The notes beneath the pieces are model-generated. The model was not told the origin of the DNA. It did not search any database and saw only the letters and a program-made list of their open reading frames with translations. The position numbers and the translations under genes were made by a program. DNA of 54,251 nucleotides, counting the filler, from Jimgerdemannia flammicorona (Eukaryota): the NCBI GenBank assembly GCA_003990765.1. It is 3 parts of 3 records of this genome, joined end to end, with 100 filler letters (N's around TTAATTAATTAA, not from the genome) between each part and the next. Parts side by side here need not be neighbours in the genome. Positions count along the whole stretch, not along the records: positions 36,237 to 54,251 come from RBNJ01002328.1; 2 more parts are not named here. One strand, 5' to 3'. This document shows positions 17,282 to 54,251 of this stretch, one piece after another. Positions within the stretch are counted from its first letter, which is position 1. Every line of letters starts with the position of its first letter.

Positions 17282-17283
17282 AG

Positions 17284-18434: not shown

Positions 18435-18445
18435 TCCTTCCCTCC

Positions 18446-19354
18446 TTAGAAATCAATGTCCTTGTTAATTGAGAAATTGAGAACCAGGGGAGAGAAAGGT
18501 GGGGAATCCTCCTCAGGGTTGTTACCATCTTCTTCAGGGGCAGGGGGAGTGGTTACTGGTGGTTTGCTGTCCAGGATGGAGAAGTCAATGAGGTCTGCAA
18601 ATGGTTCTTACATTGGGATAGGTACTGGTATAGAGGTTCTCCATCTGATGTGGTTGGGGCCATCTAAGTAGGGCTCTTGATCTTCATGTCTGGGAATATC
18701 CATTCGAATAGGTGGTCCTTCAAAGAGGTCAGAGAGGCCTTGGAGCCATTGGTCAGGATTATCATTCAGGAGGGGGCTTCAGTAGGGTTCGCAGTCAGTA
18801 GACTTGGGGGTGATCCAGAAGTTGGCTTCTTGGGCTACCTTGATCTCTAGTTCATTAACCTTGAAGAAGGAGAGGTTCTGGAAATCCTTCAGTTGGACAT
18901 AGTTGAGGTTGGGGATTGCAAAGAGTGCATAGCACATGATTTGATGGACCTTCTTGGCAAGTCTTTGCTCATGCCTATCTAGGTGAGTCCAGTCAGAGAC
19001 CTGATCCATGGGTAGGCCACTTGTATGTTGGAGAAGCTGGTGACTGATTTCATATTCATGCCAGATTTCTAGGTAGCTGGTAGTAAGGTAGACCCTTTCA
19101 ATAATTTCACAGCGGTCAAGGACATAATTTCCTAGGTCTGGGCTAGAGAGGTTAAGAACCTCTGAGCAGCGGTTCCTTCCTTGGATAGCAACCTGGATGT
19201 GTCTAAAGATGTGGTCAACCTGGCTTGGGAGGGGCTGGCTATGGCGGGCAGTTTGGTGGCAGGTGGCAGGTATTCCTGTCTTGTCTTTTCTTTGTGAGAA
19301 GAGGGGGATGAGTGTTGCAAGGTATTCTTGCCTTGGGGAATTATACTTATTCAC
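18446..19354 (-). pseudogene. E3 accessory ORF of unknown function, between chromodomain and PPT
   Basis: ORF 18779-19354 reads on in frame past a TGA (W in the homolog) and one more stop to 18446. Clearly homologous to 53109-53933 (YEI..LL, AKK.HQI, IPNL.YV..DF..LS, DNPDQ.LQGL, DLI.FS, P.VLNF). Confidence 0.85.
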
Positions 19355-22740: not shown

Positions 22741-22929
22741 AGAAGTCCTTGAGGATCTTGAAATACATCTTGGAATTCTTCAAACAGTTCTTGAGCTTCT
22801 GTTGGAATTGGGCTACTTGTAGCTTCAGTGACTTCTTGTACTGTACAGATGAAGTAGGTGTTTCCCTTTTTTTGAGAGAGTCTCTTCATTAGAATGGCAG
22901 AGATGATTTCGATTCCTTGGTGGTTGGTA

Positions 22930-23310: not shown

Positions 23311-23624
23311 TTCTTGATGATATTGAGCTCTTCATCCTCATTGTTGTCCCAATTGCTGTCAGTCTCCTCGAAGTCAGTTTCTCCCCATCCTTCACAAGGA
23401 GGGTTGTCTTGTTTGGGTTCCTCAGTCTGTTGAGCTTGGCACTTCTCAGATTGAATTTTGAAAACTTTGGAGAGGCATGCATGGTATTCACCAACATGTT
23501 TCATGCAGTATATTCGAATAGAATGAGGGCATCGTCCACATGGTGCATAACCATCTACAATTCTCTTGTACCAGTTTTCATCATCTTCCTTCATAGTAGT
23601 GACCTTTTGACTAGGAGGTTTGTT

Positions 23625-24038
23625 GGTAGATCCAAACCCTTTCTTGCCATGGTCTGTCTGGGAGAGTTCGGGGACTTCTTCAATGGTGAGGTCTTGACAG
23701 ATTTCTTCAATGATTGCTTGGGCAATTCTTTGGCCTGCTTTGACTTCAAATGATGTGTCTCCAAAATTTCACAAGATGACACGGATTTCACCAGTAAATC
23801 CTTGGTCAACTACTCCTCCTCCTAGCCCAATGTTGAACTCTTTGGCTAGGCTGCTTCGCTCAGCAAGGTGGATGTATGTACCTCTGGGGGCTTGCATTGC
23901 AATTCCTGTTCACACTGTAGCATTGGTACTTGGTGGGATGGTGAGGTCTTGGCTGCTGTAGAGGTCATATCCAGCATCAGTTGGGTGGGCCTTAGTGGGG
24001 ATGGTAGCCTTGTATCATATCTTCTGTACTTTGATGAC
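23625..24038 (-). pseudogene. E3 dUTPase, between gag and protease
   Basis: Hand translation: IKVQKI*YKATIPTKAHPTDAGYDLYS...TGIAMQAPRGTYIHLAERSSLA...GGVVDQGFTGEIRVIL...GQRIAQAII...HGKKGFGST. Confidence 0.93.
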
Positions 24039-24124
24039 ATTCTTGGGGTTCTTTTTTCCTGGACCTTCTCCAATAACAGTAATGTTCTGGTTACTGGGTT
24101 CACCTGTTCTATTCTTCTTCTCAG

Positions 24125-25874: not shown

Positions 25875-25960
25875 AGTTATTTCTGGGGCTTACTCCTGTC
25901 CAAGATTGGTCTTGTTCCAACTTCAGGAGTGTGTTCTTTGGTGCCTTCTTGGCTGGTAAT

Positions 25961-25972
25961 CTGCTGCTACCA
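25961..25972 (-). promoter_or_regulatory. E3 primer-binding site TGGTAGCAGCAG
   Basis: Lies 3 nt inside the 5' LTR end. Confidence 0.75.
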
Positions 25973-25975
25973 AGT

Positions 25976-26755
25976 TGTAATAACTCTCACTTCTACCCCT
26001 CTCTTATCCTTAGGATAATTAGGGAAGTGGACTATTACTTAGGGACTTAGTATACAATGTATACCAAGAAGCCTTCAGTTTGAGGAAGTGCTCACTTAAA
26101 GTAGTTGTAGCAGCAGTGCCTTATCTTTCAAAGGTCTTTCTCTTGTGCCCTATTTCGAGGGTCTTGTTCTTTGGTGTGCACAGACTGAATTTGTCTTAGA
26201 ATTCAGGTTCAACTGGTTTACTTAAGTCTTTGGGGATTTATATACTGGTCTCAGTTCTGGTAGAAGTTAGCTAGGCTTCTGGAGTTTAGTCAGAAACACT
26301 AGAGTCACTTAGATGTCATTACTAAGACTCATGGGAATGTGGGTGTGTGGGGGGGACTTGATTCTTATATGAAGGACTGAACTAAAACTGCTTTATTTCA
26401 GATGGAAAATTGGGGGGTATTTATACAAGTTGGTCCATGATTTTTGACTAAGTATGAGTAACTAATTTGGTACCTATAATGAGGTTTGTGATCACAACCT
26501 TTGTTAGGTGGTTTTTGGTAAAGAATATCTTTGTGATCAGGACCTCAATTACTAGGCAATGATCAGTAGCTATGGCAACTGTTGCTGCAGCACCGGTTGT
26601 CAGGGATAAGCTGGATATCATTTTCCACCTCATTTCGCATTATTCATCCATTCATTATTCATATGCTGCACTCAATCATATGATGACGTCATCACTGGGT
26701 CATGTGATCGTTCATCTCATTGCATCCCATCTGTTCGCTCATTTGTTCTATTACA
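25976..26755 (-). repeat. E3 5' LTR (780 bp)
   Basis: TGTAA...TTACA ends. Minus-strand TATAAATACCCC at ~26414-26425. Palindrome TGATGACGTCATCA at 26681-26694. Confidence 0.92.
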
Positions 26756-32409: not shown

Positions 32410-35400
32410 ATGAACAGTACAACTAACATTTTCTCTTTGAATATGAATGGGCTGAGGGGGTCTGGATGACATAAGAACATTTTTACTTAGCTCAAGAGAT
32501 TGGAGGCTGATCTCTTTTTACAACAGGATGTGTGGTGTGAGGATGAGGAGGATCAGGTAAAGTGGACTATGGAATGGGGTGGGGCTTCTGCTTGGTTTGG
32601 AAAAGTGGCAATTCTGGTAAGGAAGGGTAGAGGTGACTTGGAGGGAATCAGGAGCTGGGGTGACCATCTGGTCTGGGGTGATTGGCAGTAGCCAGGGTGG
32701 AAGTCAGTGAGGGTTGGCTCTTGCTACTACCCTGTGGTTAGGGGTGAGAGGATTGCTTAGATTAAGGAGCTGCTGGAGGAGGGTGTTCCCTTGGCAGAAG
32801 GGGTTGATATGATTGGGGGGGACTTTAATATGGTTCGGGATCAGCATCGGGACCGCACTGATGGTGGGAGGAGTGCAGGAGGGAGAAGTGGAGGCCTGGA
32901 TGCATGGGAGGAGGTGGAGAGGTTGAGCTCCTTAGGGGATATGGGTAGAATGTGATAGGGTGACTCCAGGGTCTATACGCATTGGGGGAATGGCTTGGGT
33001 ACAAGAATTGACTGGATTCTGATGGCAGAATGCTAGGGGTCTGATGTCTGAAAGGTATTGGAGGTAGAATAGTGCCCATGGTCTGATTACTGGGGACTGT
33101 TGGGACAGGGGCAGTTTGGGGGGAGTGGAGATGGACCTGAACATTGGTGCCTCAACTCCTCCCTACTAGCTGAGAAGGGGTTGTGGGATTCTTGGGTAGA
33201 GGACATTCAGGCGAAAGTTTCACACTGGCAGTGTGAGGGTTTGTCAGTGGATATTCAGTGGATGAGATTGAAAGAGGCTGCAAGGGTCTATTGGGGAGAG
33301 GTTGGGAGTGAAGCTGGAAGAAGAAGGAGGAAGCACATGAGGTGTACTTCTAGCAGGCTGAGGAGATTGCAGATGGATTGGGCTGGCTTGCTTACTTCTG
33401 ATGGGGTGGAGGATTGGAGGTTGGCATGGATTAGATTGGAGGTTTTGGAACTGCAACAGGTGCTGAGAGAAGAGGAGGAGGTGCATATGCATGGTATGGT
33501 GGCTAGGCTACGGTGGCAGGGGCTTGAGAAGAGTGAGTGGCCTACTAGTATTTATCCCATTTGCTCCATGTAAGGAAGGTGTGACATTAGTGGGATGGAG
33601 TCCTCAATGCTGATGGGGACATGGTGCATGGCATGCAATAAATCCTAGGGGTTTTGAAAGAGAGATGTTGGGGTTTATGGAGTGAGGATGAAGAGGGTGC
33701 TGATGAGGTGGCTATTGAAGAGGCATTAGAAGAATAGAGGCTGCTGCAAGTGACTGGACTGGATGACTTGACCTTGCCGGTGCAAGATGAGGAAGTCCAT
33801 AGTATCCTTGTGGCAACTAAGACTGGAACAGCACCAGGAGAGATGGACTTCCATGGGACTTCTGGAAGAAGATGGTCAAGGTCTCTGGCATTCTGGGGGA
33901 GATGACTGCTCTCTGTGATCATGTTCTTCAGAGTGGTAAATAGGTTGGGGAGCAGGACCTTAGGCTAGTGGCTTTATTGTGCAAGGACAGGGGAGAAGAG
34001 AAGACTGAAAGAACTGGCAGCCAATCATGCTTTTGGACATAGACAGGAAGATGGTAACTAAGGTGGTTGTCGCAAGGCTGCAGAAGGTTGCCCAACAGGT
34101 ACTGGGGGAGGAGCGGCAGGGCTTTGTTGGAGGAAGGCTTATTAGAGATAGGACTGCTTGGGTGCATGGGGTCATTGAAGGGGCCCAGACTTGTGGCCTG
34201 GATGGGAGGTTGGTCTTTTTGGATCAGGAGAAGGCCTATGACTGGGTCCAGCGGGTTTGGCTGGGCAAGGTGTTGGGTTATATTGGTATTCCCCCTGGAT
34301 TTCGGGCTTCTATGGTGAATCTACTTGAGGGCAGTCAGGCAGCACTGTTGTGTAATGGTCACCATGGTCAGGCATTTACCTTGAGGAGAGGGGTTCCTCA
34401 GGGGGACCCGTTGTCCCCTATTCTTTATGCTCTCTCATTGGAACTGTTAATGGATAGGATTCACCAGAAGGTGGTCGGGCTCTCTATCTATGGCATAGTA
34501 TGGAAGGTGGGGGCCTTTGCAGATGATATGGTGGTTGGCCTTGGGTCAGTGGCAGATATCGAGGCACTTCAGGAGACAGTGGAATGGTATGAGGTTCACT
34601 CTGGGGCAAAGCTCAACTGGCATAAGTGTGAGACCATGGTGCTAGGGAATGGACTGGTGAGTGGGGACGTTATTGGAATAATTGTCCCTACTGGTGAGGT
34701 GGTATGTTATCTGGGCATCTTCCTCTCTGTATATGGTTCTGTCTTGCCATGAGTGTAGTGGGAGAGCAGGGTGGCTATTTGGGGGGAGGTCCTTCAAGGT
34801 TGGGGAGGCCACCATATCTCTCTAGCAGGGCGGGTTACAATTCTGAATACATACTGGTTTCCCAAGCTGTGGTATATGGTATATCATCTAGACTTCCCAG
34901 CTTGGGTGGTGAAGAGGCTGATAAAGGTGGCTAGAGATTGGATTTGGGCAGAGAGGAGGTCCCAGATCAGTTGGGATGCTCTTGTGATACCGGTGGATAG
35001 GGGAGGTCTTGGCCTTGTGGATTTCCCTAAGAGGTTGTACTGCTTGCAAGCCTGGTGGCTGAAGAGAGTGGCTGAACTGCAGGGAGGAGGTTGGGTACTT
35101 CTGATGCAGAAGGTGTGGGAGATGAGAACCTCCCCCCAAGGGTCCTCAGGAGATCTACTCTCTTTGGTAGGGCTCAATGGAATTTGGCAGCTGTGGTTTA
35201 AGGGCTTTTGGTGGGGAGTGGTCAATGGAGTACACTGAATTGGTCTCTGCTGGCAAAGCAATGAGGGGGAGGTAGTGTGGGGTTCTCATATGTGGCGATG
35301 GGATAGACTGCTTCTGGGAGGTGCTCCACTTGTTACTTTTGATATTGGGGATGGAGTAGAGTATCAGCAGGGTCTTGGCCAAGATCTTTGGCCAAGTGGT

Positions 35401-36066
35401 TGGCAGGTAGTCGGGATTGGTGAGGAGTGGGACTGGGCTGGTATCTGGTCTTGGAGCACTGAGGTACGGCGGTGGCTTCCCCCCAAGTTCTGGGTGGTGT
35501 AATAGCGAATGCTGTGGAGAAATGTCATACTGAATTTCCACACCAAGCATCTGGTGGATGGTGGCTGTTTTGATTGTGAGAAGTGTTACAATATAGGTCA
35601 AGTTGGGGGTTGGGTGCAGATGCTGGAACATTGGCTGGGGGAGTGTAAGGTTTTGGGGGACTTTTGGATTGAAATAGAGAATAGCCTGAGTGTGGAGCAC
35701 AGGCCAGCGGGTGAAGGGGATCACTGGGAGGACTTGAGATCTCAGCTGGTGGGGGGGGTGGGTGATAGTTGGTTTACTGTTGGGTGGGTATTAGCAGTTT
35801 GAGTGGATCTGGCAGAACATTGGCTATTTGTGTTTGAGGAGGGGTGGCAGATAAGTCTGCAGGAGAAGGTTGTAAGATGGGTGGAGCTGTTGGGGGATCT
35901 GTTGACTGGATGGTGGATAGGTTGGGGTCCCTCAGGGGGGTGGTGGCATGGTTTGATAGCAAGGATATGCGAACAGAGTGGTGGGAGGGTGGGAATTGTA
36001 TTTGATAGAGTGGTGTTTCATTGTGAAGAGGTAGTAAGGAGGGGCCTCCCTAGGGGGATTGGATAG
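32410..36066 (+). pseudogene. LINE ORF2 (APE endonuclease, RT, C-terminal CxxC...HxxxxC)
   Basis: FSLNMNGLRG, GGDFNMV, RIDWIL, WSDY, WQPIMLLDIDRKMVTKV, FLDQEKAYDWV, GVPQGDPLSPILY, FADD, SGAKLNWHKC, CFDC...LEHWLGEC. Confidence 0.92.
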
Positions 36067-36136: not shown

Positions 36137-36236
36137 NNNNNNNNNNNNNNNNNNNNNNNNNNNNNNNNNNNNNNNNNNNNTTAATTAATTAANNNNNNNN
36201 NNNNNNNNNNNNNNNNNNNNNNNNNNNNNNNNNNNN
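36137..36236. other. Artificial contig spacer N44-TTAATTAATTAA-N44
   Basis: Same 100-bp structure as 18019-18118. Confidence 0.97.
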
Positions 36237-38890: not shown

Positions 38891-39382
38891 GTTAATGTTT
38901 TGACACTGGACAGGCTGTTCTGAGCTCCAAATAGGTCTGAATTTACAAAAAAGACAAAATCACCCAAGTAGTCTTCCTGGAGTTCAAAATACCTCAATTA
39001 TAAGATATTTCTAACTGACTCAAGGTGCAAGTCAAGCCTAAGGATTTGGAAGTTCAGATAAGAAGAAAGTACACCTCCTTCAAGTCAGTTACTTCAAGAA
39101 GAATTTATCTTAATAAGTTTATTATTAGTTAGTAAAACTCTATAAAAATTTTATTCTAAAATCAGAAGATCAGACTGTCTTTGAAATCTTTATACTACCA
39201 GATTCCAAGAACCTCTTTGAACTAAATAAAGATCTTAAAAATCTTGATGTAGAAAAATATATATTTTTTGATAAGATGGGTTCAATATATTCTCAAACCA
39301 CTAACTAAAGCTAGAACAATATTATCTTGCTAAAAGAAACTATTATAGTATATCTGATATATATCTTATCTTAACTTAATAT

Positions 39383-40472
39383 TATCATGTAGTGGGTACT
39401 AAGTTCTCCAAGTATGTCAGATTCTCTTCAAGATATATCTCTTAGACCAACTATAAGTTTCTTATAAGCAAGTTCTATTAGAGTGTCTTCCCAAGGTCTT
39501 ATAGTCCTCAAACTTCTTATCTTTAAACTATTTTGTTATCTCTTGAATTTACTTGTTTGGAATTAAGTAAAGGACTGAAACTTCTATACTTTTGAGTAGT
39601 TGGGTGCTCAAATGCTTGAGTGTTTTCAATGCTTAACTACTGACTTTATTTCAAAAGAAATGAGAGAGGTATTTATATAAAATATAATTCAATAGTTGCT
39701 AAGTTATAAAACTAAATATAAATTCTAATAACTAAATAAATGAGGTACTTGAATACAGAAAACTTCAGATTGTAAGTATAAATTTAAGTATCTATATAAT
39801 TAGTTATATAAGATCAGAATGCTGGAATAATTTCTAATAGTTATACAAGATCAGAATACCAGAAGAATTTCAATAGTTATATAAAGAACTCAGAGCAGAA
39901 TATTCAGAATCCTGGAGACTTTATCTTCATCACTATTATTAAGGCTAGAGGTTGGAGACAGGATATCTTTGAAAGAAATGAGGTCAGCAAATATTTTGTC
40001 TATTTTATATATATTATACATTTCAATTAGTAGTGAGATGACATTATTATTGATAATGTCATCATATTCAGTAGTGGTAGTAGCAGAGAAAGTAAAGAGA
40101 TCAGGGGCTCTCCAATCTATGAGATTCTCCTTTATAAAGTAGAGGACAAAGGTGGGATTTTGAGAGAATCTAACCTAGATACTGGGACATTAAAATACTA
40201 AGATTAATCCCTATAAAAATTGATCAGGATTGTTCTAGAGGATGGGATTCTAGAACTCTTCTACCTCATTACTTCTGAGAGTAATAATATATTAGGCTTC
40301 TGTGACTACTATGACCTCTAGTGTATCTATACAGCAGGCTGATAATTTTTTGAAGTCTGAGACTCTGGTATACTCTAAGTTGGAGATTAATCAAGATATA
40401 TACCTAAAGATCTGATGGATCTTTTTTGGCTACTCTCAATTCACATATATCTATAGAGATGGCATCTTATAT

Positions 40473-40503
<31 letters not shown>

Positions 40504-42219
40504 GTTTAATGGACTCAATATCCTGCGGATTTTTATTAGAAGGGAATCTAGACTATATAGGCCAAAACCCTCCCCCACCACCCATCAAGCACTGCCCTCC
40601 CATTAATCTAGGCTAGCTATTGTCTAGCAGCTTGACTATACTAGGCACAGTAGGGCCTATGGTGGCCTATACCTCATTCTGTGCACCATGCTCTCCCTAC
40701 TACCAGGGGAAACCCAGCCATATGCCAATGACTGAAAGCACATACCTGAGAACCCAATGTATGTACAAGGTCATGTCCAAGCTGAATAGAATAGCCCCTG
40801 CCACTCCAAAGAGAATGACAGGCAAAGAAAAACTCTCATCAAAGTACAATATAATAGGTAGGGCCTGGTTCTCCCAGTCAAGATGAGTAAAGGACTTACA
40901 TGTGAGATGGGAGGAGACCCCCAATACTCCACTACTCAAGCCTGCAGGCCTTGATCATATTGCTATGTCAGCTCCTAGTTCTAGTTAAGTATAGCCAAGA
41001 CACCTGAAATAGGTAGCCTTGGCCCCCTGACCCCCCCTGACGACCGGGGCCCAATCTGCCAAATCACCAAAAGAAGCTGAGAGTGATACCTACCACCTAA
41101 CTGTACCATACTAATCAAAAGGCCCCACCAGAGCAGCACCTGCCCCAGTCCTGATAACTGCTCCCAGCCTGGCACCCTACTGATTTACTGTTAATGCCCT
41201 TCCTCCTATCTGTGGCAGCCATCTCCCCTCCCATCCTGACAATACCCAAAAAGCAGTCACCTATACCAGAACCATGCTTGCTGGGAAGCTCGCCAAAGCC
41301 AGAGGGCCCCACTACAGGCACTAAGGACCTGTAGGTAATCTATAGTGAGCACTTGATGCCCAAGGTTGGCTGACTCCCTACATAGTCCGAGATACACTGA
41401 AACAGCACTTTGTTGGCAATAACAAAAGGAAGAAGGCACCTCACCAAAACGGATGCACTCCAGACACAGCTAAAGGCACCAGAAACTGCGAAAAAGAGGA
41501 GAAGACACCGATCTGACACTGATAAAGGGGCAACCCATCACCATTGCCTCCCTCTCACTGCCCTGCAACAGATACAGCAAACCAACCTGAGGTAGAGGGG
41601 GTAATAATTGTGAAAAGTGGACTCAGAAGGTTGCCTACCAAACCAACATGACCAGTAAGATAGCAGAGAAAGGGTGGTATCTTATATCTCTTAGAGACTA
41701 GTCTGAGAGAATTTCTGATAGAGAAGATTTCCTATTTCATATTTCTGCTATATCTAGAGGTATTTGATAGTGATGATAATCTTTGTTTCTATTTTATAGT
41801 TGTAGAGAATAAAGTGGTAAGAGTTATCAGTATCCAGATTAAGGCTAGGAGTTCTTCTGATATAGATCCTCATAGCTCTCCTGATATCTTGGAATATTCT
41901 TTTTTGAACTAAGAAGCCTTGGTGATTCCTGGACTTTGAGATTTGGTAGGTGGCAGGCATTTTGTTTATAGTGAGTCTTTGAACTATTTAAGAGTTTTGT
42001 AAGTCTTATTTGAGTTGCTGCTGCTATGGTTTCTTAGTCCTTCTTTTATATTTCTTAAGATATCTATCTTATAGTCATAATGACTTATGGTTAGTCATCA
42101 TTGCTCATCTTATAGCCTGAGTGAGTTATGCTGTATGATCTTCTTATGCTCTAATCTGATAGCTTAAAAGAAAAGACTATCTTCTGTGATGATATCACCA
42201 TTCTGAGATCACCATTATA
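39383..42219 (-). repeat. E6 3' LTR containing a decayed copy of the accessory ORF (41960 to ~39889)
   Basis: 39383-40110 repeats 47922-48626. From 42219 downward it matches the start of the LTR at 52867. ORF 41754-41960 (MPATYQISKSRNHQG...) matches 53109 onward. Confidence 0.88.
40478..41674 (-). mobile_element. 5'-truncated non-LTR (LINE-like) insertion with poly(A) tail and ~18-bp TSD; second LINE family
   Basis: Poly(T) at ~40476-40503 on the plus strand. TGGCATCTTATATCTCTT at 40460-40477 is repeated as TGGTATCTTATATCTCTT at 41675-41692. It interrupts the LTR ORF. Confidence 0.85.
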
Positions 42220-42579
42220 TTTCTTCTAAATAAGAACCTTTTCTTGAACATTCTTATTCATTGGTCTAGTCTGAAAAATTTGCTGATCTCATAACCTCTG
42301 GCAGGGGGTTGAAAAGTGGTATTTATAGGCTGATATCTTCCTTATATATTTTGGCATAATGGTGAAGAGTCACTCTCTTCATATAGAGCAAGGGCCTGAT
42401 TCTGATCTTGACCAATCAGTTGATGGTTCAAACTCCTCTGGCTTTGAAAGTCTTATGAATAAGTAGTTGCTGGTACTATATCCCTTAGAGAATGGTCCAG
42501 ACAGATTACCTATTAGTCATGAGATATGCTATTATGATTTGCAGACTAGAACCTCACAGGTGGTCATCACATTTTGCTT

Positions 42580-45200
42580 CTCTTATATAGGTTTGTAGTA
42601 CTTCTTAAGTCTATTTCTATGTACCATGGTAGGCAGTATGGTCTCTGAGAGTTTTCTAAGCCAGAAGGTAGTTTCCTTGACATCTTATACATAGAAGGGT
42701 CCTTCTTATTTGGGCTCCAGTTTTCATGACCATGAGGCTTCTACTATATTTTGATATAGTAGAACCTTTTCTCTGATTTGAATGGGTTCTAGAGTCTTGT
42801 GATTCTTTTCTATATTCTTTCTTATTAGTACTTGTAACTTAATAATATAATATTCTACCTTCTTTCTGATTTGATATAGTCTCCAGATTTCTGAGTCAAT
42901 CTGTTGCCAAGTTAGATCTAGATTTGTAGCTGAGGTTTCATCAGAATCTTCTTCTCTGAAGAGCAGTTCTCTTGGGGTAAAGTGTGTACTCTGTGACAGT
43001 ATATCTCATAAGACAGAGAGGGCAGTTGGGAGGTAGTTATCCCAATTCTTATATATGTCTGAGATCTTGGCCAAGATGTTCTTGAGAGTCTTATTGGTTC
43101 TTTCTATGTATCCATTTTCTTGAGAGTGATATGCAGTAGTCTTGATATGCTGAATTTTATATTTCTGATATATTTTCTCATGGAATCTATTGACAAATTC
43201 TGTATCACAGTCTGTGGTGATTTGTCTTAGTGTCTTGTAGTGACAGATAATTTCTTGGTACAGAAAGTCAGTAATAAAGAGAACATTGACTTCTTGTAAT
43301 GCTCCTGCTTCTATCTATTTGGTAAAGAGATCTACAATAACTATAATATAGTAGTTTTCTGATAGAGTTACAGTAGTGATCTAATGATATCTATTATGAT
43401 GTGGTAGAAGTGGATAGGTTTGATTCTTAATGACCTGGGTGTCTGGTCTTACTGATCTTGTTTCTGTTTTTGGTACTTATCACACCCTTTGACAAATTGG
43501 TGCAGGTCTTCTTCCATCTTAGGCTACTATATAGTTCTTCTTACCTTATTATATATATTGGTTCCTCCTAAGTATCCTTGTTTGTGTACTTTCTTCATTA
43601 CTTGATACTTCTTGTATTTGGGTATAATGAGCTTTTCTTTTTTTCTGAGTGTGGTGTTGTCTAGTTTGAATTGTTTCCAAGTCTGGTTGATAGTAGTGAT
43701 AGTTCAGAGTTTGAGGTGGTTGGGCATCTTCTGCTGCTCAAGATAGCTGATTAATCCATAGTATAGCTCTTTATTTATATTGAATAGTCTTGATGGGGGT
43801 ATTTTTAATTATCCTTGAAAGTGCATCAGCATTAGCATTAGTTCTTCCTGAGTAGTATTTAATAGTACAGTTATACTCTTGCAGTCTGTAGATCTATCTG
43901 GCATATATTCTTTTAGAGTTCAAAGTGTAGAATAGTTAGGTGAGAGCAGAATGATCTGTTTGAATAGTAAAGTATTTCCTGGCTAGGTAGTAGTAGAACT
44001 TGTCTACTGTCCAGACTACTGCTAAGCATTTAAGCTTATATAACTTATAGTTCTGTTCTGCTCCATAGATATCTCAGCTTGTATAGGAGATAATATATTC
44101 ATGTCTATTTTTCTTCTGAGCTAGCACTGCTCCAAGTTCTATAGTACTTGCATCTGTCTGTAGGATAAACTCTAGGTTCTAATCTGGTATTCTGAGGATG
44201 GGTGCTTGGGTCAATCTAGTCTTGAGTTTGTTGAAGATTTCTTAACATTCCTTAGTCTATTCAAATTTGATCTCCTTCTTCAGTAGCTCATAGATAGATA
44301 CTATAATATTGGAGTATCTTTTGATAAATCTTCTATAGTAGGAGGTTAGTCCAAGGAAGACATGGACTTCTGTAGTTGTTCTGGATCTTGGGTAGACTAC
44401 AACAGTCTCAATCTTCATGAGGTCTATATGAATTCTAGTCTGGTTGATAATGTATCCTAGGTAGGTGATTTCCTGAGTTACAAACTTATACTTCTTGGGC
44501 TTGATGTAGAGGCCATGCTCATTGAGCTTCTTGTGAGCTAGCTATATGTGGTTGACATATTTCTGTGTAGTGTTGCTAAAGATGATCACATCATCAATAT
44601 AGATAAAGAGCTATTTTCTGATTTCATTACTAAAGACTCTATTTATCATTTACTGAAAATGTGCTGGAGTATTGTATATTCCAAATGTTATTCATAGGTA
44701 GACATAAGTGGTATCAGGTATGATGAAGACTGATTTCTCACTGGCATCTTGAGAGAGACCAATCTGATAGAAGCCTGAGAACAGATCCAAGGTGGTGTAG
44801 TATTTGGCTTTACTTCTAAGAGTAGTAAAAATTTCTTGAATATTTGGCAAAGACTGCCTGTCCTTCTTAGTGATTGTATTGAGCTTTCTGTAATCAATAT
44901 AGAGTCTTGGGGAAAACTCTCCAGACTTGCTTTCTTTCTTTGGGACAAGGATAATGAGTGAAGCCTAGGGGCTGATAGTTTGCTTGATGATACCAGCTTC
45001 TTCCATTTCCTTAAGTTCTGCTCACAGCTATTCTCTGTAGGCAGGTGGTATGAGTCTGGCTTTCTGGTAGATAGGCTTGATATCTCTGATGTCAACTTTG
45101 TAGTAGTACTTGGGTTCTTTATTATAGATGTCCCTGAAGTCTGTAGCAAGTACTTCTTCATTCTGATATAGGATCTTGAGAAGTTGTTCTTCTAGAAGAA
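42580..45200 (-). pseudogene. E6 RT, RNase H and integrase
   Basis: RLYIDYRKLN, TTLDLFSGFYQI, IYIDDVIIFS, VFLGLTSYYRRFI, QTDASTIELGAVL, NADALSR, TTAYHSQENGYIERTN, KLEPK*EGPFYV. Confidence 0.9.
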
Positions 45201-45291
45201 AGTTTTCTCCAATGGTATATATATACTTATTCTGGTCCTTATCTTTCTTGTGCTTGAGTTTGGTAATCTTGATGATAGTATAGGCTCCTCT

Positions 45292-45708
45292 TCCAGTAGA
45301 TCCAAAGTCTTGTTCTTCTCTCTTAATCTTGTTAAGTTTGATGGCTTCAGTGATCTTAGGCTTCTTGACTTTATGGATCAGTATCTGGTCAATCCTGTCA
45401 TGCTTCTTGACTTCAAATAGAGTGGTGGGGTTGTAACTTCTAACTATAAGAAAGATCTCACCAGTGTAATCAGAGTTAATGACTCCTCCTTCAACTGAGA
45501 TTTTGCTCTTGACCAGACTGCTTCTAGTCTTGATAGTTCTGATATAGTTCTCTAGTAACTTAACTCCAATTCTAGTGCTAAGTAGAGTGGTAGTTTATGG
45601 TTCAAGAATAGCATCTTGGATGCTAATAAGGTCTATTTCTATGGCTTCTTCAGTCTTATATTCTGGGATCTTAACCTTAGAGTGAAACTTCTTAATCTTG
45701 AGAGTGAT
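45292..45708 (-). pseudogene. E6 dUTPase, between protease and RT
   Basis: Hand translation: LKIKKFHSKVKIPEYKTEEAIEIDL...IKTRSSLVKSKISVEGGVINSDYTGEIFLIV...HDRIDQILI...KREEQDFGSTG. Confidence 0.88.
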
Positions 45709-46049
45709 GTCTGGTTCTTATTCCTCCTCATCATTACTATCAGCTTGAAGCTCTAAGGGCTGATCATATTCTTTAGCTTTCTTTTTTACTTTAGCTGCTT
45801 CTTGCTCATATCTTTATTGATGGATTTTTCTAACTTTACTGATGTAGGACTAGCAGTTATTCAGATGTTCAGAGCAGTACATCCTAACACTATGGGGGCA
45901 TCTTTCTTGAGGAGCATAGCTATTGATGATCTTATTGTACTACTGCTCATCTGTGAGCTTAGTTATCTTGCTCTTGTTCTTGTACACTGAGTGTATGAAG
46001 ACTTCTGTGTCCTCTTCATCTCCTTTCTCTATATCTGATACATAGTACT

Positions 46050-46430
46050 CCTTTGTGGAAATTAATAGAGACTCATATCTTTCTTCCTCTATAGTTGATC
46101 TATATCTTCTAGACATTGAGGTCAATAATAGCCTTGGCCTTATGGAGCCATTGGTTATCAATGAGAATGTTATAGTTGGTAGTACTTGTAATAATTACAT
46201 TTACTGGGATAGTAGCTCCTCTAATCTTGATGGAGACTTCTCAGATCTTACCTAGGGGGGTAGCTCATATATCATCTGCTATGATATAGATCATTTTGGT
46301 AGATTCTTCAATGTTTCAGTCCTGGTGGTCAATTGTCTTCTTACTCATAAGGTATCCTCTAGCACTAGTATCAATGATAGCATCAAAGATACAATCTTCA
46401 ATCCAATACTGAGTATAGGCTGAGGTCTTG
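46050..46430 (-). pseudogene. E6 aspartic protease
   Basis: FDAIIDTSARGYLMS...TPLGKI...YNILIDNQWLHKAKAIIDL. Confidence 0.8.
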
Positions 46431-46989
46431 TGCTGATCTTCAGATTCTTTACCTGAGTCTTCTTATTCATCTTTCTGTGCATTGTGAGCTTCTATGATCT
46501 TGTACTCTTAGTTCTTGATAGTAGTTGCAAGTCCTACTCTCAACTACTATCTAAAGGTAGGGACTTCTACTAGTTGTCCAAAAGTAGCATTGATCTTCTG
46601 TTCCTTGAGGTCCTTATAAATATCATACTAGTGGATCTTGGTCTTATACAGCTTCTGTTCTTTCTTACTTTCAACTTTCTCTTGAGACTGGAGTAGTGCC
46701 TTCAATAATTTGATAGGTAGCTTTATCTAATTCTATGTCTTGATCAATCTCCTTAGGTTGGGTCTTACTTTGTATGGTAATGGTTGAGGTCTTTTTTGGT
46801 CTTCCAACTGGCTTGCTATTGCTCTTCTTATCCTAGAGCTTGGACCAGATTCTGGTACCTTTAGTAACAGAGTAGAATTTGGACTCCTTAGGGTATTCTT
46901 CATCATTAGTCTACTAATTTCCTTAATGATTACAGCATTGGTTTATTCTCTAGTTCTGGTAGCATCACTTGGTTGAGCTCTGTGCCTTG

Positions 46990-47880
46990 TTTCAGTTATG
47001 ATTCTTTACATAGTGGCCTTCTTCTCTATATTTGAAGCATGTAATGGTGTATTTCTCTATAGTAGCTGCAAACTTCTGCACTGGTCTCCTGTTAGTACTT
47101 CATACTTCTCTAACAATATCACTAAGGTGTACAGTCATCTTGGCAAACTACTGGACAAGTTCCTCTACTGGGTCAGCTTTGGCTATCTTGGGAGTAGATG
47201 GGAATAGTTGTCTATTGATAGCTATAGTAGGTATGATACTGGTTGGCTTTAATGACTCTATATTGATACCAGTTATTCTTTCTATTGAGTGTTTGGCAGA
47301 GTGTCTGACAGTCCAATATCTCTGTACAAAGACCACTTTCTAGTCAAGAGTTAGAGCAGCTAGGGTAGACTAGATTGCTAGAGTGATTTCATAATAGACT
47401 TCTTTTAGGAAGGTTGAATCAGCTATCTGTTCTTTGAGGGCATTATCATAGCCAGCCAAGACAATCTGGTGGCAGATTCAGATGTAGAATAAGTTGGAAT
47501 CTTTACTGAGTCTCTGGCAGATAGTATTGAGTTGATCTTTGAGAGCTTACTTGATCTGTTTGGTATAGTATATAGTTCTAAGGAAGTTCTTTATGTTGGT
47601 GAGTTTGGCTGCACTATTGTTAGCAATAGTGGCTGCATTGAACTTGTCTCTGGCAGGTCCTCTGAGGCTGACTGATAGAAGGGCCAATTGTGCTTCTACA
47701 GTGAGAGCTTATATAGTGGCAAAATATTCAAAGTCTTTAATAAAGGTCAGAATTGACTCTTCAGTAGTAAATTCATAGAATATAGGAGAATATATTTCTA
47801 TCTTATCTTGAATTCTTGAAGGAGTAACTCTTGTAGTCAGGGTAGTTATTGTGGTAGTTGTTCATTTTTTAGCTTGAAAG
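46990..47880 (-). pseudogene. E6 gag
   Basis: ILTFIKDFEY...LSVSLRGPARDKF..., with a decayed knuckle TCFKYREEGHYVKNH at ~47000-47045. Confidence 0.7.
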
Positions 47881-47921
47881 TGAAGGATCCTAATGATATC
47901 ATCAGCCAATAGGTACTAAGT

Positions 47922-48626
47922 TGTCATGTAGTGAGCACTAAGTTCTCCAAGTATATCAGATTCTCTTCAAGGTATATCTCTTAGATCAACTACAAGTTTC
48001 TTATAAGCAAGTTCTATTAGAGTGCCTTTCTAAGATCTTATAGTCCTCAAACTTCTTATCTTTAAACTATTCTGTTGTTTCATAGATTTACTTGCTTGAA
48101 ATTGAGTAGAGGACTGACTTCTGTGCTCTTGAGTAGTTGGGTGCTCAAATGCTTGAGTGTTTTCAATACTTGACTACTGACTTTATTTCAAAAGAAATGA
48201 GAGGAGTATTTATATAAAATATAATTCAATGGTTGCTAAGTTATAAAACTAAATATAAATTTCAATAATCAAATAAATGAGGTACTTGAATACAGAAAAC
48301 TTTAGGTTATAAGTACAAATTTGAATTTCTATACAATTGGTTATATAAGATCAGAATACTGGAATAATTTCTAACAGTTATACAAGATCAGAATGTCAGA
48401 AGAATTTCAACAGTTATATAAAGAACTTAGAGCAGAATGTTCAGAATCCTGGGGACTTCATCTTCATCACTATTATTAAGGCTAGAGATTAGAGACAGGA
48501 TGTCTTCAAAGGAAATGAGATTAGCAAATGTTTTGTCTGTTTTGTATATACCATATATTTCAATTAGTAGTAGGATGTTTGGTAGTAGTGACAGTGGAGA
48601 AAGTAAGGAGATTAGGGGACTTCAAT
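47922..48626 (-). repeat. E6 5' LTR, truncated
   Basis: Direct repeat of 39383-40110 with a small internal deletion. Ends abruptly against the E7 RNase H. Confidence 0.88.
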
Positions 48627-51600
48627 ACTTCAAGTGGCAAATTCTACCCTTCTATATAAAGTTACTACTGATGCCTCTGACCTAGCTCTTGGAGCAGTGC
48701 TTATGTAAAAAGGACACCCTGTGGTCTATCATTCTCATAAGTTCAATAAAGCTAAAATTAACTATATAACTCATAAGAAGAAAATGTTAGCCATTATAAA
48801 CACTCTAATCAAATAGTGATTATATCTCAAAAGAGCATACTTCACCATATTAATAGACCACAAATCATTAATCAACATCAAGACCTGGGCACTTTCCCAA
48901 AAGCAAGTCAGATGGATGAAAGTTCTCACTAATTTTGACTATGAAATCCAGTACTGCCCTAGCAAGAAAAACATTAATACTGATATAATTTCCAGACTAC
49001 TAATCAAAGAAGTTATACAAACCCTCACCTTAGTTACCAACTCTATTATGGAATAAATTATTGCAGCATATACTGATGATAAAGAAGCTCAAGCACTCCA
49101 AGAAATCCTAAGCAGTGATGATATTGACAAGTACTCCTGATATCATCAATACTAACTGAAAGATAATGCTATCTACTATAAGTGCAGATTGTATATCCCT
49201 AACAATCAAGACCTCTGAAGGACTATTCTATTCAAATATCAGAATGCCCCTATAGCCAGATATCTAGAATTTGACAAATACTATAAAGTTATTTTTCAAA
49301 ACTTCTATTGGCCCTATATAGCAGATCAACTAAAGATCTATATCACTTTCTGTAATACCTGCTAATATAACAAGTTCTCAATACTAGCAAAATCTGGCCT
49401 ACTCTAGCCTATCCTAGTATTATCTACTAATTAGAAACAAATCTCTATAGACTTTATTATGCAACTACTCTGAACCAAGAATGGAAAAGATACAATTATT
49501 GTCTTCATAGACTATCTTATCAAATAAGTCCACTTTGTATCTACTGCTACAACTGCAACAGCACCTGAAATTGCCATACTCTTATTTGATAATATCTTTT
49601 ACTATCATGGTCTTCTTAAGATCATTATTAGTAATCAAGATCTAAAATTTACCAGCTATTTTTGAAAAGCTCTATATGTATATCTTAGAATAAAACTTAC
49701 ACTATCTATAGCCTTTTACTCTAAAACTGATAGCTAAACTGAAAGGATGAACCAAACTCTAGAACAAATACTAAGAAACTATATTTACTATAAATAAGAT
49801 AATTAGTATGAACACCTTATTGTAGTCAAGTTTGCCTATAATAACAGTAAACAAGCATCTCTTGGAATGACTCTGTTCTTCACTAATATAGAACAAAACC
49901 TGAACACCTCTCTGATACTTATCAGAACTACTGATTAACTCTCTAATATTGAAGCTATTGAAGAATTCCTACTTCAAATGTGCAACTTAAGTCAGATTAC
50001 AATGAGAATTTATCTCAAGCTCAAGAATAACAATCTTAGTATATCAATCAGCACTGCTGAGAAGAAACTTTTGATATTAGAGAAAAAGTTCTACTAGATA
50101 TCCAAGAATACTGAGTTAATAATCTCAAGCACAGACTCTCTATAAAGCTAAATAGCAAATTCATTAGACTATTAGAAGTCATTATACAAGTCTCTCCAAC
50201 CTCCTACAAATTGATACTACTGGATACTATCAAGATTCACTCTGTCTTCAATGTCTAATATCTCAAGTGATATAATGAAAATGATGACAAACTATTTCTA
50301 AATTATACTATAAAACCACCAATACCTGTTATCATTAATGACCAAAAAGAATATAAAGTTGAACAAATTCTCAACAAATACAGCCACAAGAACTATCCAG
50401 AATACCTTGTCAAATAAAAAGGTTATCTGATCCATGATACAATATAGAAACTCAAAACTAACCTCCAGAATGTTACTGACTTAGTTCAAGAATATGATTC
50501 TTTAAACAACTAAATCTGAATAATCCAATATTTATCAGTCTTATACTATATATTACCCTCCTGAACATTGTTAAAAGTATTCTTATAATTATTATGAATA
50601 AAATCAAGAACTCTACAAGTCAAGATAAAAGAAATACCAACTTTCTAGAAAAATAACAAAACTGAAAACCAGTCTATTCTCCCCATACTACTAGTGAAAA
50701 ATGAGATATAGACATTTAAGAAGATTTCTTAGAGGAAATTCTCTAGTAGTAAATGACATCAGAATTACTTCTGATATATAGCATTGAATATATGACTCTT
50801 TAATATATGTATAAATCTAATATATTAGATAACTATACTATGAGTATACTACTTTCTGAGAAAAATGAATGTTACTAGACTTTTGACCATCTAAATGGTG
50901 TAACAACACTAGACCAAATTAGATGACCTTGATGAGAATATAAAAAACTAAGAAGGAGAGAGTTGTAAGTACACAATCTCTAAGTCACTAAAATTATATA
51001 ACTCTCTTAGAACAAATTTGGAAACCATATACAAGATCATGAAATGAGTCACTGAAGAGATCATCTGATTATACAAAGTATACCAGTAAGTACAAATATT
51101 TATTACCAAAACACAAGAATACTAGAAGAAGTACTATGACTATAAGGCTGATCTTAAATCTCTACTCATTGGATAACTAGTCTTAGTATACCATACTATC
51201 ATAAAAGGAAACTAGAGTATCAAACTCAAACTAAAATGAAAAGGACCCTATCTTATCCATCAAAAGTTCATGAACCATATATATTAACTCAAGACTCTGA
51301 ATAGAGTTATACTCAAGACTAAGATATACTGCAACTATATAAGACCTTATTACTCAGTAGAAGCAAAATACATTTGAATAACTTTATTTACTCCATCTGT
51401 ATTATCTTCATTGGAGAATGACAGATGCTTCATATAGAACTCAAGAAAGCCAACAATATTAAAACCAATCTTAAGCCCATCTATATGATAGATGTTATTA
51501 TTAGAAATTGCCTCAAATTATAGAAAATATTATTTCTAAGAAGTTTGAACCCCCAGCCATAATAATGAGAGCTCTGCTTTAGACAAGAATGGCCAGTTCT

Positions 51601-52500
51601 TGCAAATGTGCCAATAGTCCAAAAAAAAAGAGAACTAAGACCTGTTATTCCTGTGTAACTATCTCTGCCAAGGATAGCTCTAGTTTTGCAAGGGGTAGAT
51701 ATGACAATATTTTGAAACTAATGATATCAGAAGTCAGAAGACAGCTCAGACTTTATCAGAGATAATATTATCAATGGTGATCTCATCAAAGAATATCCAG
51801 ACAGTATCTAAACCTACAAATAGCTTAGTAGTCATTAGTATAGTTAGATTAGTCTTATACTATATATGTAACTGTATTCTGACTCAGCAATCAGTCAATC
51901 TCTTGATATATCAGTCCACACTTATACTATGTGACTATATTCTGACTCATCAAAGTACTAAGTACTATATCCATATTTAGCATAGTCCAGATAGCCTCCT
52001 ATTAGTATAAATATCTACTCTCTCAGACCTCAGAAACTCAGACTCAAATAGACAAGAACAGTCTAGAACTCCTGAATACTTTTCTACACAATATCCCTTT
52101 ACACACTACTCCTAGTATAGCAATATCATGAATAGTAAATAAATCTATTTAATAACCCACAAACTACTCTTAAGTAAATCTGTACTCTGTTAGATTCCAC
52201 TCCTAACTAGATCCTGAATTTCCTAATTAGGCATTGTCTGCAGTGATACATCAATTCAACTAAGCTGGTCTTAGTTTCTTGAACTTTCTGAAATATAAAA
52301 AATCCTGAACATCTAGAATAAGTCTAAAAAAGAACTTTAGTTGAGACATCAATCTAATCTTGAAATCAATAAGTATAAAGAATATACTCTATATGAAATT
52401 AATCTTGATCTTTAAGAAATAGTCTTCCAGAACATCTGGAACTTCCAGAAAACTCTTCTAGAACTATATAATAGTACTTTAATAAAGTAACTCTTTTATA
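48627..52500 (+). mobile_element. E7: 3' half of a decayed chromovirus-type Gypsy element (RH-INT-chromodomain-PPT-LTR family A)
   Basis: VTTDASDLALGAVL, IDHKSL, ISIDFIMQL, ERMNQTLEQILRNY. Chromodomain EYKVEQILNK..PEYLVK*KGY at ~50340-50510. PPT AAGAAGGAGAGAG at 50950-50962. Confidence 0.9.
50964..52500 (+). repeat. E7 3' LTR, family A
   Basis: Starts TGTAAG right after the PPT and is collinear with 2687-4173. Confidence 0.9.
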
Positions 52501-52820
52501 TTGAGAGTTCAGAGATATGTAATAGTAGCTGATATTGAATATCTTAAATGGCTGATGGAAGAGATAAAGACCTGATAGGGGATCATATAGGAAGCTTGTA
52601 GAGAAAATATACAGACAGAGTAAAGGGAGAATTGGGATAGCTGGGGAGATAATAACTTTTTAGAGAGATAGAGAGGAGGGGGGAGGAGACTTCTCATAGG
52701 ATTGGATGAGGGGTGTATTGTGTTTGTATTAGTTTAACATAGATTGGATGATAATAAAGTGGATTACAAATATATATATATATATATTATGCTGAAAAAA
52801 AAATAAAAAAAAATAAAATA
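52501..52820 (+). mobile_element. LINE 3'-end fragment with (TA)n and A-rich tail
   Basis: ggaggggggagg...ggattggatgaggggtgtattgt...aataaa resembles 36040-36115. Followed by (TA)n and A runs. Confidence 0.6.
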
Positions 52821-53108
52821 AGTTAGCAGAAAAATATATCAAATTATCATCCAAATTAGTTACCATTGTAACGGTGACCCCAGAATGATGACATCAGCAC
52901 AGGAGACAGCCTTTCCTTGTAAGCCACCAGATCAAAGCACAAGAAGATCATACGGCATACAAGATGAGCAATGATGACCAACTGTGAGTCATTGTGACCA
53001 CAGCACAAGCATCCTGAAGAATATAAAAGAAGGATCAAGGAACCGCAGTAGCAGCAACTAACAAGAACCACCAATCCCAAAATAGCTCAAAGACTTACCA
53101 CAAACGAA

Positions 53109-53933
53109 ATGCCTGCCGCCCGCCAAACCTCAAGGTCAAGGAACCACCAAGGCACCTCAGTTGAAGAAAGGATGTTCTAAGACATCAGAAGAGCCATGGA
53201 GACCCGCTCAAGAAGGACTCCTAGTGTCCACCTGGGTACTGCAGACCTCTATCACTTTATCCTCTACTGCCATGAAATAGAAACAAGGATCACCATCACC
53301 ACCGAATGCCTCCAAATGTGGCAGGAGTACGAAATAGGAAACCTCCTCTGCCGGGAGTTTCCACAGGCCAGCACCCAAGAGCTACAAGATGCCACTCCCA
53401 TAGATATACATGAAACGAGGACAGCTAAGAAGATCCATCAGATCTTCAGGCATGCACCATGGTCAATTCCCAACTTGGAGTATGTTAGAGTCTCAGATTT
53501 CAGAGACCTGTCATCTCACCACATCAATGCACTAGAAGCCAGGGTGGCTACAGAAGCCCAGTCCACTATCACCCTCAACAGTGAAGAAGTAGAAGACTTC
53601 TGGCACCCCATCCTTCAGGACAACCCAGACCAATTCCTGCAAGGATTGATCTCAGTATTCCAAGGCCCAAGCATCCAAGTTAGATCCCCCCAAGACCCCA
53701 CATTTGTCCTCTATTTTGTGGAAGAGAACCTCATAGATTGGAGAGCTCCAAATCTTGTCCCCGATTTCCCTGCCGAACGTGATGACGTCATCGGCGATGA
53801 CGTCATCCCGCGCGACATTGACATACCCGAAGCATGCGAGACACGTGACCTGCATGATGAATTCATGGATCTCATCTCCTTCAGTGATGATGATGATGAT
53901 GAAGCCCCCATGGTCCTGAACTTTCTGCTCTAA
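53109..53933 (+). CDS. LTR(U3)-encoded accessory protein of unknown function, 274 codons; one premature TAA at codon 24, with a 245-aa open frame from 53196
   Basis: MPAARQTSRSRNHQGTSVEERMF*DIRRAMETR...; the homolog at 41960 has Q at the stop. Conserved at protein level with 18446-19354 and 29364-29986. TATAAAA at 53022-53028. Confidence 0.8.
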
Positions 53934-53943
53934 GTTCTTTGTT

Positions 53944-54075
53944 ACACTGAATAATGCCAGCACCAGTATTTTCATGTAACACCAGATAATACCAGCACCG
54001 GTATTCTGAGGTGACGCGAAATTGTTCCAGCACCGGCATTTTGATGTGACACTGGATAATGCCAGCATCCTGAAC
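53944..54075 (+). repeat. Imperfect ~35-bp tandem repeat, about 4 units, in U3
   Basis: Unit approximately ACACTGGATAATGCCAGCACCGGTATTTTGATGTG. The equivalent position in E6 LTRs (~39800-39885, 48340-48425) holds a ~37-bp repeat. Confidence 0.8.
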
Positions 54076-54251
54076 CTGTACAACCAACAATACCAGCCCT
54101 GGAACTTAGTAGTTTTAGTTATTAGAATTTATATTTAGCTTTATATCTTAGCAACCATTGAATTATATTTTGTATAAATACCCCTCTTATTTCCTCTGAA
54201 ATAAAGTCAGTTCTTCTCAGTGCAATACACACACTTCCTTGCAAGCAATCT

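Follow-up and report, generated by a model that had tools for sequence, protein, structure and literature searches.

Evidence for an old accessory gene within the U3 region of a Ty3/gypsy long terminal repeat in Jimgerdemannia flammicorona

Long terminal repeats (LTRs) are usually treated as noncoding control regions, and solo LTRs are seen as promoter and enhancer debris. Here, we analyzed a stretch of 54,251 nucleotides (nt) from the genome of Jimgerdemannia flammicorona (GenBank assembly GCA_003990765.1), called the window below, and found an accessory gene within the U3 region of a retrotransposon LTR at its end. This LTR, on the plus strand (the plus copy), belongs to a family that we call family C, and a second family-C element, E6, lies on the minus strand. 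The best explanation for the data as a whole, which we consider probable but far from certain, is that in family C, a family of the Ty3/gypsy type, a different position of the LTR boundary puts the accessory gene in U3, that the gene has a TATA box of its own upstream, and that the copies in the window are defective. The window consists of three pieces of about 18 kb, joined by N44-TTAATTAATTAA-N44 linkers at 18019-18118 and 36137-36236. The linker borders cut repeats, such as the 3' LTR of another element, E3, and neighborhood across the linkers carries no meaning. The content is a nest of LTR retrotransposons, several of which contain dUTPase, RVP_2, RVT_1, RT_RNaseH, and integrase domains in this order according to Pfam. 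The end of the window cuts the plus copy, and both its R-U5 part (about 260 nt in E6) and its partner LTR lie outside. The positions of the features are listed in Table 1.

The reading that the open reading frame (ORF) of this gene lies inside the LTR is well supported, and the evidence favors position 52867 as an LTR end. The plus copy and the 3' LTR of E6 are 72 to 73% identical, with homology beginning exactly at 52869/42217; upstream of this point, E6 runs on into integrase remnants and the plus copy does not. TG...CA termini are present: the plus copy starts with TGTAAC (TGTAACGG at 52867), the E6 LTR ends with ..CATGACA, and related LTRs have the form TGTAAG...CTTACA. The TGTAA terminus of the plus copy is common to three other LTR families in the window. 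Two small public sequencing runs, whose kind was only guessed, gave short contigs of high depth. In both, the depth of repeat contigs started in the bin 52824-52879 and was zero in the four bins of 52600-52823, and in each run one contig departed from the window sequence at 52866/52867, the flanks of the two contigs being different. From the LTR start at 52867 through the ORF (53109-53933) to the main TATA box at 54173, the ORF is wholly inside U3, and the same order was found in L001, a metagenome contig described below. Neither a purine tract nor a TGTAA start was found after the ORF stop in the plus copy, in E6, or in L001. The preliminary description of this DNA had placed the LTR terminus, an ORF starting 242 nt inside it, a TATAAAA at 53022 (87 nt before the ATG), the main TATA box (TATAAATACC), and the AATAAA at the positions given in Table 1, and all of these coordinates were confirmed.

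The DNA in front of the plus copy belongs to something else. The 4.2 kb before 52867 are the 3' half of a different, much older plus-strand element, whose RNase H, integrase, and chromodomain region is collinear with the pol region of E3. This older element has a clear polypurine tract (PPT) of its own, AAGAAGGAGAGAG, and its own LTR (50963-52498, TGTAAG...TTATA). The latter is one of three copies of an older LTR family, distinct from family C, that we call LTR copies A (2686-4174, plus strand), B (28951-28266, minus strand), and C (50963-52498, plus strand); its TTATA end is a decayed form of the CTTACA of copies A and B, and the three copies end at the same base. The plus copy starts 370 nt after the end of this LTR and has nothing in common with the older element, and its LTR contains 28 CpG dinucleotides (observed/expected ratio, 0.39) versus 0 over the 11.9 kb of E6 and the neighboring old element. 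Therefore, it is an independent insertion, younger than the element that flanks it. The decayed element at 48625-52498 could have had the plus copy as its 3' LTR, but this was ruled out by that element's own PPT and LTR, and also by the CpG counts (0 versus 28) and by the lack of nucleotide similarity to the E6 internal region. A 13-nt match of the flank before 52867 to the U3 of E3 (CCAAATTAGTTAC), by which the flank might have been taken as LTR-like, was rejected as well (E value of 0.78, with many equal matches). The plus copy is a young insertion, and the CpG difference suggests strong decay through methylation and ages that lie far apart among the copies of one family.

The ORF is a genuine gene, and comparisons at the sequence level indicate that it is an old accessory gene under purifying selection. 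A word-index protein search gave six database proteins at an E value of ≤1e-3. One of them, P0001, was 89% identical to the 245-amino-acid (aa) ORF of the plus copy by BLASTP (91% in a MAFFT alignment), and another, P0002, is intact over its full length of 271 aa and starts with MPAARQ, exactly like the frame at 53109. An exhaustive profile search against 1.84 billion representatives gave five matches, with P0007 (214 aa), P0008 (342 aa), and P0009 (200 aa) as distant intact relatives; altogether, the intact homologues span 29 to 89% identity. The contig L001 (1,345 bp, from a metagenome) carries the same cassette, with TATAAAA at position 4, the ATG at 69, an intact ORF of 323 codons, and, 177 nt after the ORF stop, TATAAATACC at 1218, followed by AATAAA at 1244. 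The ratio of nonsynonymous to synonymous substitution rates (dN/dS, Nei-Gojobori) was 0.24 for the plus copy versus L001, 0.33 versus E3, and 0.23 to 0.31 versus two blocks of E6, values that are rough since dS was near saturation. The motifs WxEYEI, AKKIHQxFRH, NPxLxDNPDQ, and LNF were kept in all lineages. Further copies were rare: metagenome scans gave no copy with the profile A3 and a single locus, L001, with P0001, a scan of viral contigs found none, and among prokaryotic genome contigs there was one 15-residue match in a bacterial metagenome-assembled genome, which we took as chance. The ATG at 53109 is 242 nt from the LTR terminus and has an A at position -3. The preliminary description had taken the ORF as running from this ATG; a real gene does start there inside U3, but in this copy codon 24 is an in-frame TAA where intact relatives have a sense codon, so that only 53196-53933 is open here. 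An antisense ORF of 138 aa at 53652-54068 was set aside since it overlaps the conserved sense frame.

E6 places the family-C LTR in an element. Its direct repeats (39382-40040 and 47921-48577, 89.5% identical over 659 nt, with similarity extending to 48668) flank remnants of dUTPase, RVT_1, RT_RNaseH, and integrase, as expected for the LTRs of a Ty3/gypsy element; no chromodomain was detected by Pfam in the decayed E6. The ORF copy in the 3' LTR, with its ATG at 41960, has 11 in-frame stops and is dead. As had been noted before, the 3' end of the ORF recurs in the 5' LTR remnant (the last ~75 codons, within 48668-47922), and the upstream TATAAAA is conserved in E6 (42050-42044, minus strand, 90 nt before the ATG); it was found in L001 too. 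In E6 as well as in LTR copy B, the sequence after the LTR end is CTTAGTA, where a primer-binding site would be expected. The idea that E6 is a clean insertion into the old element at 48625-52498 was rejected because the region to the left of E6 has no pol similarity. The 3' LTR of E6 is split inside the ORF by a 1,197-bp poly(A) retroposon at 40477-41673 (minus strand). This insert is GC richer, has an AATAAA as well as an A tail of about 30 residues, is flanked by a direct duplication of 13 to 17 bp, AGAGATATAAGAT(A/G)CCA, and looks like a retroposon mediated by a long interspersed nuclear element (LINE) or a 5'-truncated LINE. A perfect TATAAATACC also occurs at 42318-42327 (minus strand) in the internal region of E6, about 100 nt before the point at which the 3' LTR starts and followed by several ATGs. 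It may be left over from an earlier LTR boundary, or it may be an internal promoter comparable to that which mouse mammary tumor virus (MMTV) has before its 3' LTR.

The preliminary description, in which the LTR was built as a self-contained mini-gene, had missed a third homologue in the window, in E3, and this one changes the picture. E3 (18119-26757, minus strand) is fairly well preserved, with a gag-like region, dUTPase-protease (22725-23768), reverse transcriptase (RT), RNase H, integrase, and chromodomain (PF00385, E value of 6e-13, 19924-20229), and toward its 3' end the chromodomain is followed by a homologue of the accessory ORF, the PPT, and the LTR. The homologue was 38% identical to the plus copy over 216 aa by tblastn and 37% over 261 aligned codons, and blastn found nothing; it has ATA at the start position and two in-frame stops. 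A clear PPT, AAGGAGGGAAGGA, overlaps with its stop, and the LTR that follows begins with TGTAATAG at 18434; the same TGTAATAG opens the 5' LTR, where it stands after a gag fragment of another element, and the two LTRs (18119-18436 and 26440-26757) are 88% identical. Therefore, in E3 the accessory gene is internal to the element. The ORF identity between the plus copy and E3 (37 to 38%) equals the pol identity between E6 and E3 (39% over 455 aa), which indicates from the alignments that the gene diverged together with the elements, about as much as pol. About 208 nt before the E3 ORF, TGTAACC...TGATGATATC looks collinear with the start of the family-C LTR, TGTAACGG...TGATGACATC, a direct reading of the sequence without statistics. 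We conclude that this is an old 3' accessory gene of a dUTPase-encoding, chromovirus-like group of Ty3/gypsy elements. The simplest reading is that lineages differ in the position of the PPT/LTR boundary, which leaves the same cassette inside the element in E3 and within U3 in family C; the gene would then be in U3 through a different LTR boundary around an ancestral 3' gene and would not have been built by the LTR.

The elements around E3 add to this comparison. E2 (11684-17642, minus strand) has dUTPase, protease, RT, RNase H, and integrase, and its LTRs are about 390 bp long (11684-12075 and 17283-17642, 84% identical). It has no room for the accessory gene and no match to it, so the gene is patchy within the group. 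The older LTR family (three copies of about 1.5 kb, TGTAAG...CTTACA, with TATAAATACC about 1 kb in) contains in its U3 a segment of about 300 nt (3044-3344 and 51362-51659) that is 76 to 80% identical to the internal region 19478-19780 of E3, just before the accessory ORF; here again, homologous sequence is part of the LTR in one lineage and of the internal region in the other. Before the 5' LTR of E3, a 224-aa open frame at 26957-27628 (minus strand) is 42% identical over 77 aa to the gag-like region of E3 (25100-24870), and E3 appears to have landed in the gag region of a further related element, which has copy B as its 5' LTR.

Several signals within the family-C LTR bear on how the gene might be expressed. 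The upstream TATAAAA was kept in all three family-C sequences, and its distance to the ATG is 87 nt in the plus copy, 90 nt in E6, and 65 nt in L001. It lies in a block that is identical in the plus copy and L001 (GAATATAAAAG) and reads AAATATAAAAG in E6, with AATATAAAAG common to the three, and the leader contains two more conserved blocks: AGCAGCAAC, which is some 30 nt further downstream, and AAGACTYACYAYAAAC, which precedes the ATG. No ATG occurs between the TATAAAA at 53022 and the ATG at 53109, and five occur further upstream in the LTR. The main TATA box is shared widely: with ≤1 mismatch, TATAAATACC was found 19 times in the window versus 4.1 times expected, a count that was reached in none of 100 shuffles, and 7 of the 19 sites are main promoters of five LTR families, counting the three copies A, B, and C and both E6 LTRs. 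At the poly(A) signal, the block TATAAATAC..GAAATAAAGTCAGT was kept in both E6 LTRs. As described earlier, repeats lie between the ORF and the main TATA box; contigs of the sequencing run X2 skip 156 to 167 nt there, which suggests copy-number variants. Two TGACGTCA palindromes, of the cyclic AMP response element or ACGT-core type, are inside the ORF at 53783 and 53798 (53783-53805, plus strand) and encode DDVIGDDVI. This palindrome was found at four sites in the window versus 0.15 expected, and the other two sites are in the U3 regions of the two E3 LTRs (18363 and 26684). Judging from these sites, we suggest that the coding sequence with the TGACGTCA pair may also serve as a control or enhancer sequence of U3.

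A conserved TATA box, a leader without upstream ATG, and a following poly(A) signal make it plausible that the family-C LTR contains a self-contained mini-gene. In the scheme that we propose, the PPT and LTR start of family C would be located about 240 nt upstream of the gene, and reverse transcription would copy the gene, its leader, and the conserved TATAAAA into both LTRs. Transcription would start about 30 nt after the upstream TATAAAA, so that the first AUG in the RNA would be the gene's own, and would end at the AATAAA of the LTR, so that each LTR could yield an unspliced mRNA of about 1.15 kb. The AATAAA would stand at or before the predicted main start site, so that polyadenylation there would be confined to RNA started further upstream and genomic RNA started in the 5' LTR would not use it. 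A U3-carried gene with its own promoter would make every LTR, solo LTRs included, an autonomous protein-coding unit, and the dispersed LTRs would amount to a multicopy gene family supplying the whole element family with a trans-acting factor, with the TGACGTCA pair doubling as a U3 enhancer; the factor would perhaps be a transcriptional activator or a counter-silencing protein, given its basic N terminus and acidic tail. We consider this extended scenario unlikely as it stands. The earlier suggestion that all copies, solo LTRs included, could keep expressing the protein is not borne out by the two LTR-borne copies in the window, with a premature stop in the plus copy and 11 stops in E6.

A number of observations weigh against the explanation that we favor. 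The window has no single element with the entire ORF in each of its two LTRs and with target-site duplications, since the 5' LTR of E6 is truncated and the partner of the plus copy is outside. Both LTR-borne copies in the window are defective, with the plus copy prematurely stopped and E6 dead. The PPT of E6 is degenerate: AGAAGAAATA is purine rich but short and precedes a decayed TATAATGG. At the LTR terminus there are two loose contig ends, among the 12 listed of 32, from runs of guessed kind, and the near saturation of dS makes the selection estimates rough. As for the promoter, conservation of the TATAAAA between the plus copy and E6 alone is weak evidence at an overall identity of 73%, and L001 begins at the TATAAAA motif, so that the comparison starts there and not upstream. 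The upstream start and the use of the AATAAA by such a transcript are predicted from sequence signals.

These observations leave room for other explanations, the most serious of which concerns the promoter. If the gene is in U3 and the upstream TATAAAA is no promoter, production of the protein would depend on the 3' LTR copy alone, through a spliced subgenomic RNA or read-through genomic RNA from the main promoter of the 5' LTR, and neither solo LTRs nor 5' LTR copies would yield any of it. Spliced subgenomic RNA is the standard expression route for retroviral 3' accessory genes, and an AG with a poor pyrimidine tract is located 24 nt before the ATG in the plus copy and at the matching place in E6 and L001. 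The sag gene of MMTV is listed as the product of a singly spliced mRNA in an excerpt of one account (PMC12789967). However, all three family-C sequences have kept the leader block with the TATAAAA, and a TATAA occurs in E3 at much the same distance (72 nt before the start position of its homologue); a TATA-like element was kept whether the gene is internal or in the LTR. Furthermore, an RNA entering the LTR from upstream would carry the five ATGs before that of the gene, unless they were spliced out. We regard expression by splicing or read-through as possible but rather less likely than not to be the right account.

It is much less probable that the LTR boundary itself is misplaced, that is, that the gene is internal as in E3, with the true LTR after the ORF, the plus copy being a 5'-truncated element and the E6 5' remnant being the 3' end of an upstream tandem element. 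E3 proves that an internal arrangement exists in this group, the whole ORF was never found twice in one element, with the 5' LTR of E6 being truncated, and tandem LTR-internal-LTR-internal-LTR arrays with shared LTRs are known. Against this, there is no purine tract or TGTAA after the ORF stop, as described above; four copies (those of the window and E6 and one contig per run) break homology at the same nucleotide, at the start of the TGTAA terminus typical of this group; and the distance from the stop to the main TATA box is only 177 to 239 nt, versus about 330 nt from the LTR start to the TATA in the U3 of E3. We give very little credence to the remaining possibility, namely that the ORF is no functional gene but an open frame that arose by chance or survived as a relic within a long LTR. 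The lack of any Pfam, PDB, Atlas, or fold match, the poor AlphaFold model (see below), and the broken state of both LTR-borne copies in the window would fit such a relic. A relic would hardly have intact homologues over so wide a range of identity, low dN/dS values, a tblastn match to E3 at 1e-39 where blastn finds nothing, and the four motifs kept across all lineages.

The gene in the family-C U3 has its closest analogue, not a homologue, in MMTV sag, which likewise is a complete accessory ORF located in U3, upstream of the classical U3-R border promoter, and hence carried by both LTRs. Two extra promoters further upstream in the MMTV U3 can serve sag, and from a third one, placed just before the 3' LTR, comes an unspliced mRNA for sag alone; MMTV thus uses both kinds of route for sag (PMC12789967). 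The extra sag promoters follow the same logic as the proposed upstream TATA of family C. The two systems differ in other respects. The accessory protein has no homology to Sag (at an E value of ≤1, Pfam gave neither a superantigen family nor any other family from retroviruses); it has no hydrophobic segment, whereas Sag is a membrane protein of type II; and MMTV is a betaretrovirus, whereas family C is a Ty3/gypsy-type retrotransposon without env. The dUTPase-before-protease order in the window resembles that of betaretroviruses only by position.

Errantiviruses and Athila elements carry an env-like ORF3. The accessory ORF does not resemble such an ORF3, having no signal or membrane segment, an acidic, soluble character, and no Pfam match. 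In the parts of the literature that we drew on, an additional ORF is drawn for Tcn1-like chromoviruses of fungi and Selaginella (PMC2864245), and extra ORFs are reported in elements of bdelloids (PMC5408684); our comparison with these is by position and description, not by sequence. The likeness is that of a lineage-specific ORF downstream of integrase, and the pol-ORF-PPT-LTR order of E3 is exactly of that type; the family-C ORF differs in being inside the LTR and not between pol and the PPT. The nef gene of human immunodeficiency virus (HIV) extends into U3. In foamy virus, a dedicated second promoter serves the 3' accessory genes, as stated in an excerpt of PMC12789967. The foamy virus tas/bet genes and HIV nef are 3' accessory genes like that of family C, but they are partly or not at all in U3, and the foamy virus promoter is in env, whereas in family C the candidate promoter, the ORF, and the poly(A) signal are in one LTR. 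A full-text literature search, with supplements and most subscription journals outside its reach, found no LTR retrotransposon with an accessory ORF inside the LTR; the wording "LTR ORF" in PMC4408412 is part of "non-LTR ORF2" and is no precedent. If the family-C arrangement is as we propose, pipelines for LTR annotation miss a coding family, possibly in very many copies, and a sag-like arrangement arose independently of betaretroviruses. The comparison of E3 with family C would mean that a shift of the PPT/LTR boundary moves a 3' accessory gene into or out of the repeat.

The accessory protein has a basic N terminus, a conserved core predicted to be helical, and an acidic C-terminal tail ending with LNF(L)L. 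In P0002, the net charge is +8 in the N-terminal 45 residues and -14 in the C-terminal 60. The maximum hydropathy over 19 residues was ≤1.05 in all five proteins analyzed, and the protein is without a membrane segment. A Pfam search with the ORF and all 10 family members gave only a chance-level match to ATG5_HBR (in 2 of the 10 members; best E value of 0.088), a PDB profile search gave no hits at an E value of ≤10, and in the ESM Atlas the best feature score was 0.83, with the Atlas's own model having a predicted local distance difference test score (pLDDT) of 0.35. AlphaFold2 with a 10-row alignment gave a mean pLDDT of 48, with helices in the N-terminal half at low confidence, and a VIA-align comparison with 48,161 chains gave no fold match (best Z score of 2.8). 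As an orphan without a known fold, the protein is a candidate for a new regulator of retroelements. At low certainty, as a guess from its features, it is probably a soluble regulatory factor that acts in trans for the family.

Table 1. Features of the family-C copies and of the E3 homologue (positions in the window)
Feature	Position	Strand	Remark
Accessory-gene homologue of E3, internal	18446..19273	-	tblastn E value of 1e-39
3' LTR of E6, old, 0 CpG	39383..42217	-	Carries ORF copy
Internal region of E6, dUTPase/RT/RNase H/integrase remnants (Pfam)	42218..47921	-	AGAAGAAATA directly before LTR
5' LTR remnant of E6, truncated	47922..48668	-	Last ~75 codons of ORF, TATA, AATAAA, R-U5
Family-C LTR, 5' ~85% (U3 and start of R)	52867..54251	+	First ~1.4 kb of ~1.6-kb LTR
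Upstream TATAAAA, candidate promoter of accessory gene	53022..53028	+	87 nt before ATG
Accessory-gene reading frame, 274 codons + stop	53109..53933	+	Interrupted by TAA at 53178-53180
Uninterrupted ORF, 245 aa	53196..53933	+	Starts at internal ATG
35-bp tandem repeat, 3.3 units	53951..54067	+	Between ORF stop and main TATA
Main TATA box of LTR, TATAAATACC	54173..54182	+	Same 10-mer in LTRs of E3, E6, and copies A/B/C
AATAAA poly(A) signal	54200..54205	+	27 nt after main TATA, then GTCAGT

The remaining observations concern the window outside family C. An Rfam search of the whole window gave no matches. A 5.4-kb inverted match (67% identity) connects 6358-11678 with 36132-30778, between two GC-rich, RT-bearing elements of another family, and a 1.4-kb repeat is common to 1-1439, 6363-7812, and 34673-35838.

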